Shown here: positions 53,021 to 61,806 of the stretch, piece by piece
How positions within the stretch are numbered: the first letter of the stretch is position 1
Layout of the letters: every line of letters starts with the position of its first letter
Source of the DNA: a bacterium
GTDB taxonomy: Bacteria > UBA8248
DNA: 64,000 bases
Assembly: GCA_965213625.1 (NCBI GenBank)
Contig: CBDBZU010000004.1
Location: 3,552,001-3,616,000 of the forward strand
Reading direction: 5' to 3'
Translations under genes and position numbers: made by a program
Notes under the pieces: model-generated
What the model was told of the DNA's origin: nothing
The model's input: the letters and a program-made list of their open reading frames with translations, nothing else
Databases searched by the model: none

Positions 53021-53215
53021 CTAAAAAGCTTTGGTAAGACCCGCCTGCTTGAGCACCGCGTTGGCCGTATGGCGGGACTTGATTTCATTATCTACCGGAA
53101 AACGCTTCGAAGTTAAGGGGCTGTACCAGATTTCATGATCGCCCCTGCCCTGCCGCTCGAAGCGGCAACCTTCCTCGCGCAGAAGTTTTTTCAATTCCCT
53201 AGTGTAGTTTCCCAC
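53021..53215 (-). CDS. HicA-family toxin
   Basis: RQGRGDHEIWYSP, SRHTANAVLKQAG. Confidence 0.88.
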   Translation of the reverse strand: MGNYTRELKKLLREEGCRFERQGRGDHEIWYSPLTSKRFPVDNEIKSRHTANAVLKQAGLTKAF

Positions 53216-53218
53216 GGA

Positions 53219-53461
53219 TCAGGCGAATTGGACTTCCCGTTCGAACGCGCCAAAATGCGTTTTCGCCTGACGCGGCAAGACGCCTTCCAAAAGGTGGGCA
53301 TTCAATTCCAGGAGTTCCGGAATGAGATTTTTCAGTTTCTCTTCGAGTTCCTCGGGCGTGGGCGCTTCGGCGACGAGTCCGGGTACGTCTTCGCTCTCGG
53401 CCACCCAGACCCGAGCCTCCGAATCCCATTCCGCGAAAACTTCAATGATTTCCCGCGCCAT
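53219..53461 (-). CDS. DUF1902/HicB-like antitoxin
   Basis: AEWDSEARVWVAESEDVPGLVAEAPT, IPELLELN. Confidence 0.82.
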   Translation of the reverse strand: MAREIIEVFAEWDSEARVWVAESEDVPGLVAEAPTPEELEEKLKNLIPELLELNAHLLEGVLPRQAKTHFGAFEREVQFA

Positions 53462-53673
53462 TGCCCGTCTCCATCCTCGCCTCCGCCAAACGGCGGCAGG
53501 AAATTCCATGTTATCCCTTCAGATTCTCGTGTCAATCGCTTGGGGATTTCTCACGACGATCAATCGATATAGTGTTCATTAGGAGCCGGATACGCCGTGT
53601 CTTTGACTTATCCTCCGCTATTGGAGAAACTGGCCGGACTGGCTGCTACACGAGGCAGACTGGAGAGAACCGA

Positions 53674-56106: not shown

Positions 56107-56469
56107 TTGGACTGGATAGGAGTGGGACTCTTGGTGCTGGGCGCCATCGTGGGCACGCTCAACGCGGCCACAGGCGTGGGCTGGGGCATCATCATGATGC
56201 CCGTGCTCTTCCTCATCCCCGGGCTCACGCCCCAGCAGGCGGTGGCGGTGTCGATTCTCGCCTACCTGTTCAACTCGCTGGTCGCCTCGTTCGAGAACGT
56301 GCGAGGCGGGCTAATCGTTTGGAATTACGCGGTTTATCTCAGCATCGGGGCCATCATCGGTGGGGTCCTGGGCGCGCATCTGCTCCAGACATTCTCGGCG
56401 CTGACGCTCAAGAGAATCGTGGGCGTCGTTGTGATCGGCGCAGGCGCGAGCCTGCTCATCAACCGCTGA
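56107..56469 (+). CDS. Half-size TauE/SafE (TSUP) family membrane protein
   Basis: GVGWGIIMMPVL, QAVAVS, GAIIGGVLGA; 120 aa; RBS aaggag before TTG. Confidence 0.8.
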   Translation: MDWIGVGLLVLGAIVGTLNAATGVGWGIIMMPVLFLIPGLTPQQAVAVSILAYLFNSLVASFENVRGGLIVWNYAVYLSIGAIIGGVLGAHLLQTFSALTLKRIVGVVVIGAGASLLINR

Positions 56470-56472
56470 GAA

Positions 56473-56502
56473 GAAAACCCCCCGTCAATGACGAGGGGTT
56501 TC
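56473..56502. terminator. Probable (bidirectional) intrinsic terminator
   Basis: gaaaaccccccgtcaatgacgaggggtttc hairpin between convergent genes. Confidence 0.6.
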
Positions 56503-56605
56503 ATACTGCTTGCCCCTTATAGGCTTCCGACTGTCATCGCAGAGTAGATAAAGCACACGAAATCAGCGATTTAACGTAATCTGTTTCATGCGATACATCG
56601 GTCGG

Positions 56606-56746
56606 CTATCCCAGCAGCTTCCTCTTCATCCAGCCCAAAGCCCGCGCCACGGCGGAGAACAGCCCGCCCACTCACGTGGGGCAGGCCGCTTGTTCCGGCG
56701 GCGTTTGGCCCTTATCGTGAATCTTCTCCTGCGTGGGGTTCGGCAT
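56606..56746 (-). CDS. Putative 46-aa selenoprotein with CPTU motif (absent from ORF track)
   Basis: MPNPTQEKIHDKGQTPPEQAACPT-UGA-VGGLFSAVARALGWMKRKLLG-UAG; ATG only 3 nt after the DUF971 stop, purine-rich RBS; UGA at 56674-56672. Confidence 0.6.
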
Positions 56747-56749
56747 GAT

Positions 56750-57103
56750 TCAGCCCTTTCCTCCCTGCGAGCTTTCGTCGCGCCCGGGGGCGATATCGTA
56801 AAGATAATCAAACGAATAGATGCCCGCGCCGCAGCCGCCCCGCCAGATGAAATTAATGGCGTAGCGCCCCACCATCTCCACGTTCTCGAGCTCTGTCGGT
56901 CCACTCGGCCCCGAGAGGACGGCGAGGGGGTTTTTCTCGCGCTCCTTGCGCTCCTCCTTGCAGTTCGCGCACGGGCAAAGGGCCGCGAGATAATCGAAGC
57001 CGTAGGCGCTCTTCTCCCCGCTCGCCCACTCGACGCGAAACTCACGGGCGGGCTTGTCCACCGTGAGATCGACGGGATGGGCCTTTTCGACAGGCGCGCT
57101 CAT
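56750..57103 (-). CDS. DUF971 (GBBH-like N-terminal) protein
   Basis: LCPCANC, VGRYAINFIW, GIYSFDYL. Confidence 0.88.
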   Translation of the reverse strand: MSAPVEKAHPVDLTVDKPAREFRVEWASGEKSAYGFDYLAALCPCANCKEERKEREKNPLAVLSGPSGPTELENVEMVGRYAINFIWRGGCGAGIYSFDYLYDIAPGRDESSQGGKG

Positions 57104-57137
57104 AAGACGCTGGACTCCTGATGGCGTTTACGGCGCA

Positions 57138-57797
57138 TCATTTCGCCTTCATCCCGTATTTCTCATACTTCTTCGACGAGGAAGAGCTGAGCTTGGCGGA
57201 TTGGGGCGTCTTGAGCTCCAGCAGATAGGGCCGCTCGGCCGAGGTGGCCTTCACGGCGTCCAAGAGCCCCTGCTCATCGCCGTCGCTCTCCCAATCGCCT
57301 TCTTCGAGCTTCACGAAAACGGGCTTGCCCTCCCCGAAATCAAGCGTGGGAACGCCGAAAATGCCCTGCTCGGCCGCGTCCTCATGCTCCTGCGCGATAA
57401 GGGGGATGGTGGCGCCGTTTTTCATGTCCTCCTCCCAGCGATCGACGTCGAGGCCCACTTCCACGGCGATATCGCGCAGAACCAGCTCGCTGGTGATGTC
57501 CTTGCCGTCCCTGTGCCTCGCCCGGTGGAGCGCCACGTGGTACTTGTCGAACTGCGTCTCGCCCTGTAAAGCCGCGCATTTGGCCGCCTGATGCGGTGGC
57601 AGATCCCTGCTCGGGAAAGTCTTATCCTCCCAGGCCTTCCAGTCCTCTCCGCGCGAGGGACCGAAATTCGCCTGCTCGAGCACGAAGGCCTTGTAGTCCA
57701 CATTCAGATCGCTTCTTTTTTCCTGAAGACGAACGAGCCACTCCATGGCCCTGTAGGCGTAAGGTCAGACGTAGCAGTTCCACATGGTGACTTTCAT
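57138..57797 (-). CDS. DsbA/FrnE-like thioredoxin-fold selenoprotein (UGA at codon 11)
   Basis: RBS taaggag, then MKVTMWNCYV-UGA-PYAYRA continuing in frame into the 202-aa ORF (ALHRARH, GIFGVPT cis-Pro); UGA 57767-57765 occupies the catalytic Cys position. Confidence 0.85.
57735..57751 (-). promoter_or_regulatory. Putative bacterial SECIS hairpin
   Basis: GGGCCA-UGGAG-UGGCUC; loop begins 20 nt after UGA and has G at loop position 2. Confidence 0.6.
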
Positions 57798-57908
57798 GAT
57801 TTTCTCCTTAACAAATCGGGGCATAAAGAAACATTGCGCGCCAATCATACACCACAAGAACGCCGATGAAAAAGCAGGGCAAAGTCTTTTGAAAATAGCC
57901 GTTTTTCG

Positions 57909-58682: not shown

Positions 58683-59492
58683 ATGAACCATGGAAAAGTG
58701 CAGATTGTGGGAGCAGGTCCTGGGGATCCGGACTTGCTTACGCTCAAGGCGGCGAAAGCCCTTACAGACGCTGACGTAGTGGTTTATGACCGTCTCGTGA
58801 ACATTGAAGTTCTTGAACTTTGCCCGGAAAACTGCCAACTCATCTATGCGGGAAAATCAAGTGGCCGACACACCATGAGCCAAAATGACATCAACGAAGC
58901 TCTGATCCATTTCGCTCATCGCGGTTATCAAGTGGTGCGTCTGAAAGGCGGGGACCCTTTCGTGTTCGGTCGTGGCGGCGAGGAGGCGCAAGCACTGGCC
59001 GAAGCCGGCGTTCATTTTGAAATCATACCAGGAATCAGTTCCGCTCTGGCCGTGCCCGCCTATGCCGGAATACCCGTCACACACAGAAACTTCGCCTCGT
59101 CGTTCACGGTCGTAACTGCCCATGAAGACCCCGGCAAACCGGAAACACAGGTGGATTATGCGCATCTGGCGAAGAACAAGGGTACGCTCGTTTTCCTTAT
59201 GGGCGCACGCTCCATCGGACGCATATCAGCCGCCCTGATAGATAACGGCATGTCGAAAGACACGCTTGCCGCCATCATTGAAAATGGAACCACAAACAGA
59301 CAATTAGCCTACCGTTGCACATTGGGAGAAGCATCGAGCCTCGCGCAACGCGAAGAAATATCCCCACCCGCAGTTTTTCTCGTCGGACCCGTCGCCGGCC
59401 TTGAAGACCTCGTGTGGTTCGAAGCCGATGAGAGTCAAGAAATCTCCTGGCGCTGTCCCATGGAAAAATCCCTGAGCAAAGCCATTTCATAA
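58683..59492 (+). CDS. cobA: Uroporphyrinogen-III C-methyltransferase
   Basis: VGAGPGDPDLLT, VYDRLV, RLKGGDPFVFGRGGEE, GIPVTHR. Confidence 0.95.
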   Translation: MNHGKVQIVGAGPGDPDLLTLKAAKALTDADVVVYDRLVNIEVLELCPENCQLIYAGKSSGRHTMSQNDINEALIHFAHRGYQVVRLKGGDPFVFGRGGEEAQALAEAGVHFEIIPGISSALAVPAYAGIPVTHRNFASSFTVVTAHEDPGKPETQVDYAHLAKNKGTLVFLMGARSIGRISAALIDNGMSKDTLAAIIENGTTNRQLAYRCTLGEASSLAQREEISPPAVFLVGPVAGLEDLVWFEADESQEISWRCPMEKSLSKAIS

Positions 59493-59560
59493 ATGCCGGG
59501 CTTCAGCCCGGTTCCAGAATTATCATCCAATTAGTACGTAGCTGCTCACGTAAGGAGTAA

Positions 59561-61366
59561 GTGATGCACGAAGAATCACGAAAATCACTGTCTCGGGAAA
59601 CATCGGGCGTCATTCCGGTGATCCCCGAAGAATTCGATGATTTTGAAACACAAGCTACCAGATTCCGTAATGGAGAAATCGATAACGGAGAGTTTCTCCC
59701 ATACCGCCTAAGGCGTGGCGTATATGGCCAGCGTCAGGCGGAAGCACAAATGGTACGCGTGAAAATCCCTTTTGGCGGTTTAAACGCTTCCCAACTCGAA
59801 GCCCTGGGCCGTGTATCGCGAGATTACGCGCCGTTGGGAAAAGGCCACGTAACGACACGGGAAAACGTGCAGTTTCATTTCGTCCCCCTCGACCAGTCCG
59901 CCGAAGTTTTGAGGCTTCTGGGCGAAGTGGGACTAACAACTCGAGAAGCATGTGGAAATTGCGTGAGAAACGTCACCGGCTGCCCCTATGCGGGCGTTTG
60001 CAAGGATCAGGTTTTTGACGCAACACCCTACGCAGGCGGGTTTGCACGTTACTTCGTCCGCAAGGATTTCACACAGGATCTGCCTCGCAAATTCAAGGTG
60101 GCGTTCTCCAGTTGCGCTTCGGACTGCGTGGTCGGCGGAATCCATGATATCGGTTTCATCCCGGTCATCAAGGAGATGGAAGGAACCCCCGTGCATGGCT
60201 TCAAGGTGCTAGTCGGAGGCGGACTCGCCACTTTTGCGCGTACCGCCGAAGTACTATACGAGTTTGTTCCGGTATCCGATTTCCTGAGGGTGAGTGAAGC
60301 CTTAATCCGGGTTTTCGACCAGGCTGCTGAACTCCGCAAATCCCGTTTCAAGGCGCGCATCAAGTTCCTGGTGAGCTGGATAGGAATAGACGGGCTGCGT
60401 GAACGCGTCGAAGAAGAGTTGAAAAAGGACTGGGCAAAAGAACCCGTCAGTCCCGAACCCTATCTTTGGAAAGATGATGAAGGAAGCGACGCTCCACCCA
60501 TCTTGAACACTCTGAACGGAGCGGGGGCTAATCCGAATGGCGACGCGGCGGATTATCACGTTTGGAGAAATACGAACGTCACCGCGCAGAGACAAGAAGG
60601 CTACTTCGCCGTCGAAGTGAAACTACCCTTGGGGAACATCCTTACAGATCAGTTCTTCGCCCTGGCCGACCTCACCCGACGTTTCGCGAGAGGACGAGCA
60701 AGAACGAGTTTCGAGCAAAACCTCGTATTCAGGTGGGTGCGCGCAGGAGAGCTTTATCCCCTGTGGAAAGAACTTCAGCGAATCGGGCTCGCCGAAAAAG
60801 GCGCCCGTGAGATTTCCGACGTGGTCTCCTGCCCGGGAACGGATTCATGCAAACTCGGTATTACCTCCTCCATGGGGCTGGCCAACGCTATTCGTGAAAC
60901 ACTTCATGAAATCGATCAGGACCCTCTCACGCGAGAATTGCACATAAAAATGAGTGGCTGCCCGAATTCCTGCGGACAGCACCACATCGCAAACATCGGC
61001 TTTCACGGGGGGACACTCAGAGCAAACGGCGCAATGCTGCCCGCTTATGAAATTTTTCTTGGCGGTCAATACGAAAATACAGATGGAGAAATCCGAATCG
61101 GCAAACGCATCCAGGTTCGGATTCCCGCAAAACGCGTTCCCGCTGCGCTCAAGAAAATGTTGTCCTACTACCGGGAAAACAGAACTGAGGGCGAGCGATT
61201 CAACGAGTATTTGGATCGCGTGGGCAACGCTTCATTCGAAGACTTGCTGCAGGAATTTCACCTTGCCGGCCAGTTTAATGACGAACCCGATTCTGATTTG
61301 TTCATCGACTGGAGTCAGAAAAAACAATATGTTTTGGAGAGGGGAGAAGGCGAATGTCTAGCCTAG
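59561..61366 (+). CDS. Siroheme nitrite/sulfite reductase hemoprotein
   Basis: GVYGQRQ, TTRENVQ, LPRKFK, CPGTDSC and SGCPNSC siroheme/4Fe-4S ligands. Confidence 0.92.
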   Translation: MMHEESRKSLSRETSGVIPVIPEEFDDFETQATRFRNGEIDNGEFLPYRLRRGVYGQRQAEAQMVRVKIPFGGLNASQLEALGRVSRDYAPLGKGHVTTRENVQFHFVPLDQSAEVLRLLGEVGLTTREACGNCVRNVTGCPYAGVCKDQVFDATPYAGGFARYFVRKDFTQDLPRKFKVAFSSCASDCVVGGIHDIGFIPVIKEMEGTPVHGFKVLVGGGLATFARTAEVLYEFVPVSDFLRVSEALIRVFDQAAELRKSRFKARIKFLVSWIGIDGLRERVEEELKKDWAKEPVSPEPYLWKDDEGSDAPPILNTLNGAGANPNGDAADYHVWRNTNVTAQRQEGYFAVEVKLPLGNILTDQFFALADLTRRFARGRARTSFEQNLVFRWVRAGELYPLWKELQRIGLAEKGAREISDVVSCPGTDSCKLGITSSMGLANAIRETLHEIDQDPLTRELHIKMSGCPNSCGQHHIANIGFHGGTLRANGAMLPAYEIFLGGQYENTDGEIRIGKRIQVRIPAKRVPAALKKMLSYYRENRTEGERFNEYLDRVGNASFEDLLQEFHLAGQFNDEPDSDLFIDWSQKKQYVLERGEGECLA

Positions 61367-61806
61367 AAAAACAATTGGAATTTTTGGACGAGAAGCCTGA
61401 GGACCAGATAAAAACGGCGGTATTGCTCGTCGGTCACGGAAGCCGCGCCCAAAATGCCAACGATGCGCTTTTCCGCGTAGTGAACTATTTTCAAAAGGCG
61501 TGGCCACATCGCATATTGAAGGCGGCATTCCTGGAGATCAGCCCCCCCTCCATTCCCGAAGGAATCGATTTGTGCGTCGCAGAAGGCGCTGAAAGAATCA
61601 TTGTCATCCCTTACTTTCTTTTTCGGGGCAATCACGTGGCAGTGGACTTGCCCGTCTTCATTCAAGAAAGCCGGAGGAAATACCCGGATATCGACGTCAT
61701 TTTGGGTCCTCACCTTGGCTTCCATCCCAAGATGATCGAGATCGTAGATGAACGAATCCAACAAGTTCTCGATACGCTAAAATCCGAGGAGAAGGCGCTC
61801 CCATGA
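61354..61806 (+). CDS. Sirohydrochlorin chelatase (CbiX/SirB, short form)
   Basis: VGHGSR, AFLE, PYFLFRGNH, HLGFHP. Confidence 0.9.
   Translation: MSSLEKQLEFLDEKPEDQIKTAVLLVGHGSRAQNANDALFRVVNYFQKAWPHRILKAAFLEISPPSIPEGIDLCVAEGAERIIVIPYFLFRGNHVAVDLPVFIQESRRKYPDIDVILGPHLGFHPKMIEIVDERIQQVLDTLKSEEKALP

Follow-up and report, generated by a model that had tools for sequence, protein, structure and literature searches.

The question raised by this locus is whether an in-frame UGA codon in an unannotated open reading frame (ORF) of only 46 codons is read as selenocysteine (Sec), which would make the ORF the gene of a very small selenoprotein. The ORF lies on the minus strand of a 64,000-nucleotide stretch of DNA (positions 3,552,001 to 3,616,000 of contig CBDBZU010000004.1, assembly GCA_965213625.1; hereafter the window) from a bacterium of the lineage UBA8248, and follows the genes of a DsbA-like selenoprotein and a DUF971 protein. 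With TGA translated as Sec (U), it encodes MPNPTQEKIHDKGQTPPEQAACPT-U-VGGLFSAVARALGWMKRKLLG, in which Sec is the last residue of a Cys-Pro-Thr-Sec (CPTU) motif. The comparison of homologous loci described below makes it highly probable that the small ORF is translated into a Sec-containing peptide of 46 residues, and quite probable that it is a genuine selenoprotein gene standing last in an operon of DsbA-like, DUF971, and small-ORF genes. An initial annotation, made from the window alone, had proposed an unannotated, very small selenoprotein gene with the selenocysteine insertion sequence (SECIS) inside the ORF; homologous loci, codon conservation, and a conserved hairpin now support that proposal. 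The central parts of the ORF are as follows (window coordinates).

56603..56746, minus strand: small ORF of 46 codons and a UAG stop (ATG at 56746-56744, UAG at 56605-56603), predicted to encode a disordered N-terminal part of 21 residues, the motif A-C-P-T-U, and a C-terminal amphipathic basic helix; from the translation, 22 genomes, the ratio of nonsynonymous to synonymous substitution (dN/dS), and AlphaFold2
56672..56674, minus strand: in-frame UGA, codon 25, putatively read as Sec; TGA in 22/22 homologous loci
56681..56683, minus strand: Cys codon 22 of the CxxU motif; TGC or TGT in 21/22 loci, TGG (Trp) in one (G009)

Conservation of the small ORF and its UGA

With the peptide as the query, a six-frame search of 61 genomes gave strong matches (E <= 3.3e-5) in 19 genomes, all belonging to one genus and each containing exactly one in-frame TGA. 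A profile built from 19 members was then run in six frames against 51 genomes of the phylum and matched 22 of them, each again with exactly one internal TGA; the matches fell in 21 of the 23 genomes of genus g1 and one of the four of genus g9, with none in the 24 genomes of 13 other genera. As far as searched, the family is confined to this genus and a single neighbouring one, within a lineage rich in selenoproteins. Codon 25 is TGA at every one of the 22 loci, and TGC, TGT, or a sense codon at this position occurred in none of the genomes searched. Of the CxxC and CxxU homologs envisaged in the initial annotation, those with CxxU were found, in 21 of these 22 phylum genomes, and those with CxxC in none of the 51.

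Eighteen loci align without gaps, and their ORFs are built alike. The start codon (ATG in 5, TTG in 9, GTG in 4) occupies a fixed place in all 18, as the second codon after the DUF971 stop; the length is 46 codons in 16, 47 in one, and 53 in one; and the end falls at the same codon in 16, the stop being TAG in 12, TAA in 4, and TGA in 2. The N-terminal half, though variable, shows no insertions or deletions among these loci, and in the alignments of the more divergent members the gaps are multiples of three. Two relatives (G015 and G034) have the small ORF in another frame relative to DUF971, with a GTG start that overlaps the DUF971 stop as GTGA, and retain CPTU, the hydrophobic helix, and the tail of Trp, Met, and basic residues. 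The gene order is likewise conserved: the DsbA-like and DUF971 genes lie upstream at all 22 loci, and a DUF4202 gene at 21, the last locus ending short of it.

Several weaker matches were set aside. Two in the same genome as the window (C4:2474999 and C4:2896256) were rejected, having neither CPTU nor the helix architecture, and one in G039 (locus L032), antisense to an FAD-oxidase-like frame, was taken as chance; G040 contains a weak match similar to that in G039. A scan of genome contigs with one narrow peptide pattern returned close relatives and a single chance hit only, and the range of the family is not bounded by such a pattern.

Coding signal on both sides of the UGA

The dN/dS ratio was calculated by the Nei-Gojobori method from the 18 gap-free sequences in all six frames, separately for codons 2-24 and 26-46. 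On both sides of the UGA the frame of the small ORF had the lowest value of the six, 0.52 in the N-terminal part (0.63-1.23 in the other five frames) and 0.58 in the C-terminal part (0.92-1.57); with the hairpin codons removed from the latter, it was 0.49 against 0.57-2.95. The same frame is hence favoured before and after the UGA, the comparison that the initial annotation had proposed as a check, and the homologous loci displayed neither frameshifts nor conservation of base pairing only. Mean pairwise divergence at codon positions 1, 2, and 3 was 0.356, 0.298, and 0.421 in the N-terminal part, and 0.159, 0.099, and 0.25 in codons 36-46. Third positions are the most variable throughout, except in codons 30-35, the core of the putative SECIS, where they are nearly frozen at 0.019, pointing to a constraint at the RNA level in that segment. 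Conservation drops sharply past the stop, to a divergence of about 0.55 per site in the 60 nt 3' of the ORF, and the other two sense frames contain stops in 18/18 and 17/18 sequences. These dN/dS figures support coding without proving it. As an observation in its own right, the approximately 20 nt directly 3' of the small-ORF stop (56583-56602, minus strand; consensus roughly CCGRYCGATGNATCRYATGA) appear conserved in most members of the genus, and the remaining 3' flank diverges.

The conservation on the two sides bears on the alternative that the UGA is a true stop, in which case the gene would yield only the 24-residue peptide MPNPTQEKIHDKGQTPPEQAACPT, and the 63 conserved nucleotides that follow would belong to a separate ORF of 21 codons or to a structured RNA element on the 3' side. 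UGA does serve as an ordinary stop elsewhere in the genome, for example in the DUF971 and DsbA-like genes, the nucleotides after the UGA are more conserved than those before it, and in the window a GTG follows it directly. However, conservation within the 24-residue peptide is highest in its final four residues, which adjoin the UGA, and the region downstream maintains the same frame, a common stop position in 16/18 loci, and the lowest dN/dS even when the hairpin codons are left out; the spacing of alignment gaps by multiples of three in divergent members likewise speaks for a reading frame. Moreover, the codon after the UGA is GTG in just 10 of the 18 gap-free loci and GTC, GCC, or GGC in the other eight, and CCG, ATC, and GCT also occur there among four divergent loci; because this codon varies, a separate downstream ORF would be without a conserved start. 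We therefore regard termination at the UGA as improbable.

Probable selenocysteine decoding and the putative SECIS hairpin

The genome encodes the machinery for Sec insertion, with matches to the SelB wing domain (78.3 bits), tRNA-Sec (75.9 bits), SelA (505 bits), and SelD (333.5 bits), the SelD gene itself containing one in-frame TGA. In-frame TGAs were also found in 10 of the 22 CMD/AhpD-like matches and 7 of the 15 AhpC-TSA matches of this genome (G000), one of the latter with two TGAs. According to the available text of the BSepDB paper, organisms labelled Nitrospinota by NCBI and placed in the GTDB phylum UBA8248 belong to the ten most selenoprotein-rich bacteria, with 48-54 selenoprotein genes (PMC13326102). 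Separately, contig C4 of the same genome contains pairs of equal-score matches about 184.76 kb apart (C4:265-405 and 185022-185162; C4:4961-5197 and 189718-189954), suggesting that the first few kb of this contig repeat a region further in, as a real duplication or an assembly overlap.

Two hairpins come into question around the UGA of the small ORF.

56641..56657, minus strand: putative SECIS hairpin CUCCGC-CGUG-GCG(c)GGG; from the RNAalifold consensus, its presence at 22/22 loci, pair counts, and the loop type of known genes
56658..56690, minus strand: second hairpin with the UGA in its loop, up to 14 pairs, -24.2 kcal/mol; of doubtful significance

In the window, the first hairpin is composed of a 5' arm (56657-56652), a CGUG loop (56651-56648), and a 3' arm (56647-56641), and its loop begins 20 nt past the UGA, with a spacing equal to that of the hairpin (57751-57735) of the neighbouring DsbA-like gene. 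The initial annotation, which had described a SECIS-like hairpin with the loop about 21 nt past the UGA and a DsbA-like spacing, is borne out on this point. A stem of 5-10 bp with a tetraloop 20-26 nt past the UGA is present at all 22 loci; the stems represent at least five different sequences, and the tetraloop is CGUG in 19 loci and GGUC in 3. The RNAalifold consensus structure is the same hairpin; in the alignment 94.4% of the cells are paired, and the covariation score of 0.213, compared with 0.170 +/- 0.009 for shuffled alignments, was reached by 2 of 500 shuffles. Several AhpD/CMD-type genes of the genome have a GGUC tetraloop about 20-22 nt past their in-frame UGAs, and this class of hairpin follows 5 of the 19 in-frame UGAs in known families, as against 695 of all 122,747 TGA trinucleotides (0.57%). 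It is the comparison across genomes, rather than the single sequence, that makes the evidence for a SECIS more than chance. The criteria of bSECISearch place the loop 16-37 nt past the UGA, with a G among the first two loop bases. The CGUG and GGUC hairpins of all 22 loci have the loop shortly past the UGA and G/U in the apical loop.

The hairpin also bears on the alternative that the UGA is read through with Trp, Cys, or Arg, by near-cognate decoding or a suppressor tRNA, and not with Sec. Context-dependent read-through of UGA does occur in bacteria, and a database entry of 46 amino acids (P0002) has W at the Sec position. This W, however, is most simply attributed to a gene caller that used a code with TGA as Trp. 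Replacement of the UGA by TGG, TGC, or CGA is seen in no relative, the codon stands in a CxxU context typical of selenoproteins, and a hairpin of the genome's own SECIS type follows at the right distance at 22 of 22 loci, so that decoding by an amino acid other than Sec appears very improbable.

The second hairpin has been considered with regard to the possibility that the region is not translated at all, being a conserved RNA (a 3' untranslated element or an attenuator of the DsbA-like/DUF971 operon) with the ORF as a by-product of GC-rich composition. The minimum-energy fold of the 101-nt region around the UGA does place this codon in the loop of this hairpin, which is strong in the main clade (10-17 enclosing pairs), and one antisense frame is open as well in 17/18 loci, open frames being cheap in such composition. 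Nevertheless, only 0-9 enclosing pairs form in the four divergent members (G015, G009, G019, and G034), where the hairpin is weak or absent, and covariation lends it no support, 75.6% of the cells being paired in comparison with 74.9% in shuffles; as a functional element it was rejected. The interchange of ATG, GTG, and TTG at one fixed position and of TAG and TAA at the stop, the frame-specific conservation with its sharp drop past the stop, and the absence of insertions and deletions from the variable N-terminal half, all features unexpected for a non-coding RNA, argue further against an untranslated region, to which we give very little credence. Finally, a C-terminal extension of DUF971 through two UGA read-throughs, yielding one double selenoprotein of 165 residues, is scarcely credible, for although DUF971 ends in TGA with the small ORF in the same frame in the window and 13 of the 18 gap-free loci, this stop is TAA in the other 5, G015, G034, and G009 have the small ORF and DUF971 in different frames, and the start codon keeps its place in 18/18 loci, and these TAA stops and the conserved start exclude such an extension.

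Predicted structure of the product

The single-sequence AlphaFold2 model of the peptide (mean pLDDT 67.3; 54, 54, 70, 86, and 78 by 10-residue block) shows residues 1-22 unstructured and a helix at residues 23-44, with Cys22 predicted just ahead of the helix and Sec25 in its first turn. Among the 19 members, the 18 residues after Sec have a mean hydrophobicity of 0.07-0.34 and a hydrophobic moment of 0.38-0.49; together with the modelled helix, this moment fits the amphipathic periodicity noted in the initial annotation. On the Kyte-Doolittle scale the most hydrophobic 19-residue stretch averages 0.95-1.44, below the usual threshold for transmembrane segments, and a conserved Arg or Lys lies at its centre. 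On these values an interfacial amphipathic helix appears to fit better than a membrane-spanning one. Net charge across the members ranges from -4 to +1 in the N-terminal tail and from +3 to +6 in the part after Sec, and a basic residue of the helix shifts between positions 31 and 35 (S31/R35 and R31/W35 variants) while staying on the same helical face. The 46 residues with their single modelled helix contain no thioredoxin-like fold, and no Pfam family was matched at E <= 0.01. A complex prediction of DUF971 with P0002, the form having W at the Sec position, scored 0.02 against a mark of 0.34, which speaks neither for nor against binding.

Neighbouring genes and transcription

The other features of the gene set, all on the minus strand unless stated, are these.

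56759..56764, minus strand: ribosome-binding site GGAGGA, within the 3' end of the DUF971 gene; direct reading of the sequence
56750..57103, minus strand: DUF971 (GBBH-like_N) gene with the motifs CPCANC and GGCGAG; Pfam E 1.6e-17, upstream of the small ORF in 22/22 loci
57138..57797, minus strand: gene of the DsbA-like selenoprotein with N-terminal C-Y-V-U, UGA at 57765-57767, and SECIS hairpin at 57735-57751; Pfam DSBA E 1.6e-17, 22/22 loci
57844..57872, minus strand: promoter-like site TTTTCA-17-TATGAT upstream of the DsbA-like gene; consensus scan, a pattern match only
56469..56498, minus strand: terminator-type hairpin and U run, common to the convergent TauE-like gene; fold -20.4 kcal/mol, z -4.06

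The DUF971 gene stops with TGA at 56752-56750, and a single codon (ATC) separates it from the ATG of the small ORF; the start three nucleotides past the DUF971 stop and the purine-rich ribosome-binding site of the initial annotation (GGAGGA, 56764-56759) are thus confirmed. From this arrangement, the small ORF is predicted to be translationally coupled to the DUF971 gene, and the best explanation of the gene order is that it forms the last gene of a three-gene operon with those of the DsbA-like selenoprotein (CYVU) and DUF971. The DUF4202 gene also lies upstream on the same strand, and the TauE-like gene converges from the opposite side of the small ORF. The initial annotation had placed a terminator after the UAG; the terminator-type hairpin of 13 bp does stand between the minus-strand gene set and the TauE-like gene, but about 105 nt past the UAG rather than adjacent to it, and it is absent from the list of the consensus scan.

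Transcription of the small ORF is weakly hinted at by two contigs from RNA libraries, one of 169 nt that covers 56558-56726 with 4 differences, and one of 1278 nt from a relative that runs from 56592 to 57797 and then 77 nt further. Stretches that these contigs leave uncovered carry no weight either way.

Some observations on the surroundings are added here. The DsbA-like selenoprotein has C-Y-V-U-P at residues 8-12, a CxxU arrangement, and is 70-96% identical across the 22 loci; the DsbA-like forms in the accessible table of a 2026 review of prokaryotic selenoproteomes are UxxC and DxxUP only (PMC13188914). Diverging from the DUF4202/DsbA-like/DUF971 set, the plus strand at 58683-61806 carries genes of a tetrapyrrole methylase, a sulfite/nitrite reductase, and CbiX, constituting a siroheme and sulfite-reduction cluster. 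At 53021-53509 (minus strand), a HicA toxin-like gene adjoins a DUF1902 (HicB-like) gene, which looks like a toxin-antitoxin pair.

Discussion

The results described above make it likely that the window contains a gene of a Sec-containing peptide, and a number of observations that weigh against this reading have to be set beside them. A dN/dS near 0.5 indicates no more than moderate constraint, and counts over 18 closely related sequences are not independent of one another; conservation of the N-terminal half is poor; and the openness of a frame, shared by the antisense frame in 17 of the 18 loci, is by itself weak evidence in GC-rich DNA. As to the hairpin, that of the window is no more stable than shuffled sequences (-6.5 kcal/mol, z 0.22; 105 of 200 fold as well), the 101-nt region around it gives z 0.83, minimum-energy folds choose competing pairings in most members of the main clade, the window included, and the covariation rests on two pairs changed on both sides. 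Hairpins of this class are not a universal signature either, since 14 of the 19 known in-frame UGAs fall outside the narrow definition. One member (G009) keeps the Sec codon with Trp in place of the motif Cys, and two members of the same genus with smaller genomes (G001 and G007; loci L064 and L063) lack the small ORF and have a large, unrelated gene directly after DUF971, from which it follows that DUF971 is independent of the small ORF. No Cys homologue was found among 1,835,955,588 proteins and the 51 phylum genomes, although short genes may be under-called in databases, and the RNA-library contigs may contain DNA and show no single transcript.

With the UGA taken as a Sec codon, the comparison of loci supports the following course of expression. 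Ribosomes ending translation of DUF971 would re-initiate three nucleotides on at ATG, GTG, or TTG, the GTG overlapping the stop in the two divergent relatives, and on reaching codon 25 they would decode UGA as Sec with the help of the hairpin 20 nt downstream, which lies inside the ORF and bears a GU-containing tetraloop of the type that recruits SelB with Sec-tRNA(Sec). The product would possess a flexible acidic N-terminal tail and a single basic, amphipathic helix capped at its N-terminal end by the Cys-Pro-Thr-Sec motif; a CxxU pair so placed would have the geometry of CxxC and CxxU redox centres. Anchored by this helix, the selenol/thiol pair may be held at the cytoplasmic side of the membrane or on a partner protein, and the peptide may act as a redox or metal-handling partner, or as a substrate, of the DsbA-like selenoprotein and the Cys-rich DUF971 protein. 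The conserved coupling to DUF971 and the constant proximity of a DsbA-like protein with CxxU suggest a shared redox or metal-handling task, possibly at the membrane. That the peptide is a tethered CxxU partner of these two proteins in redox or metal-handling chemistry is put forward tentatively, as an assignment somewhat more apt to prove wrong than right. The wider proposal, a Sec-only family lacking any Cys counterpart, among the smallest selenoproteins, and serving as a tethered selenol/thiol shuttle for the DsbA-like and DUF971 proteins, is speculative and on balance rather unlikely.

The selenopeptide family appears not to be listed in current selenoprotein catalogues. The peptide matched no family of Pfam at E <= 0.01 or of NCBIfam at E <= 1. 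When 1,835,955,588 representative proteins were searched with the profile, three hits were obtained at E <= 0.001, namely the near-identical 46-residue protein P0002 with W at the Sec position and two long repeat proteins that share merely a CPTC motif. Table 1 of the 2026 review, as available, comprises 119 families or subfamilies, many given by NCBIfam accession, and when compared by description contains no entry for a CPTU peptide of such size or for one linked to DUF971 (PMC13188914). A term search of the BSepDB supplement, with the BSepDB website itself outside the comparison, did not find the peptide, and in the literature, with the family papers by Haft and colleagues outside the comparison, no paper was found that links a selenoprotein to DUF971 or describes the peptide. 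According to the accessible text of the deep-Sep paper, the existence of Cys homologues is the usual criterion of selenoprotein discovery pipelines, all known selenoproteins now seem to have such homologues, and a family without them would be filtered out (PMC12013277).

Homology to known families or to relatives with Cys is the basis on which selenoprotein catalogues are compiled. The small ORF is a well-conserved candidate of the kind that they miss: it is tiny, has no Cys form that could be found, matches no family model, and stands in an operon with another selenoprotein. If confirmed, it would represent a new family, and would suggest that selenoproteins encoded by small ORFs have been counted too low. 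Should the family indeed exist in the Sec form only, a whole class of micro-selenoproteins would escape any discovery pipeline that demands Cys homologues or sets a lower limit on ORF length. At its length the peptide could be made by chemical synthesis and would lend itself to the study of a CxxU centre carried by one helix; the small ORF also provides an approach to the function of DUF971, a domain that is widespread but of unknown role.

The small ORF is worth comparing with other systems in which Sec or Cys occurs in a short motif. The selenobacteriocin family (TIGR04081), the CC/Se motif family (NF041239), and the dual CXXC motif small protein (NF041197), as described in the available part of the review, are alike in being small and in having Sec in a short Cys-containing motif (PMC13188914). 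In the present peptide, however, the motif is CPTU and not SGUG or RxU, and none of the family hidden Markov models is matched. The operon also contains no radical-SAM maturase gene, the neighbours being DUF971, DsbA-like, DUF4202, and TauE-like genes. Among eukaryotes, selenoproteins K and S (SelK and SelS) are small and membrane-bound, with disordered regions and with Sec as a membrane-proximal redox group; their Sec is near the C-terminus, far from the N-terminal transmembrane helix. The small-ORF product resembles them in its very small size, its disordered segment, its single hydrophobic or amphipathic helix, and perhaps in a Sec that acts near the membrane. In sequence no relationship to them was evident, and in contrast to SelK and SelS, the Sec of the small-ORF product caps the helix, which scores as amphipathic and not as transmembrane.

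Resemblance of another sort is found with the Fe-S loop of dihydroxy-acid dehydratase (IlvD), ACPTCGSCSG[LM]FTANSM, which shares the short motif (EQ)AACPT[C/U]...G[LM]F[ST]A with the peptide. In a sample of 401 genomes, 16 genomes outside the phylum gave weak profile hits without TGA, and all three that were inspected (L088, L089, and L090) proved to be this loop, eight consecutive residues being identical in one case to the peptide stretch EQAACPT[U]..G.LF.A. The spacing between the two halves of the motif differs, and the resemblance is at the level of the motif only. An exact-motif scan of the window's own genome found no IlvD loop motif, nor did IlvD appear at E <= 0.001 in the search of 1.84 billion proteins; with no exact motif in the same genome, an origin of the peptide from ilvD is unsupported. 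The likeness to the IlvD loop, together with the genes for sulfite reductase and siroheme nearby, hints that the peptide may handle a metal, an Fe-S cluster, or a selenium or sulfur intermediate.

The closest counterparts in mechanism are the bacterial CxxU and UxxC redox selenoproteins (AhpD-like, SelW-like, and DsbA-like), with which the small ORF shares, as far as the available text of the review describes them, UGA recoding of the SelB/SECIS type and a CxxU at the start of a helix (PMC13188914). Like them, it occurs in a selenoprotein-rich genome, where it adjoins another redox selenoprotein, but it differs in having no thioredoxin or AhpD fold, no family match, and no Cys homologue. Altogether, the recoding mechanism is an ordinary one, whereas the protein is unusual, being tiny, made of a single helix, and with no known Cys form.

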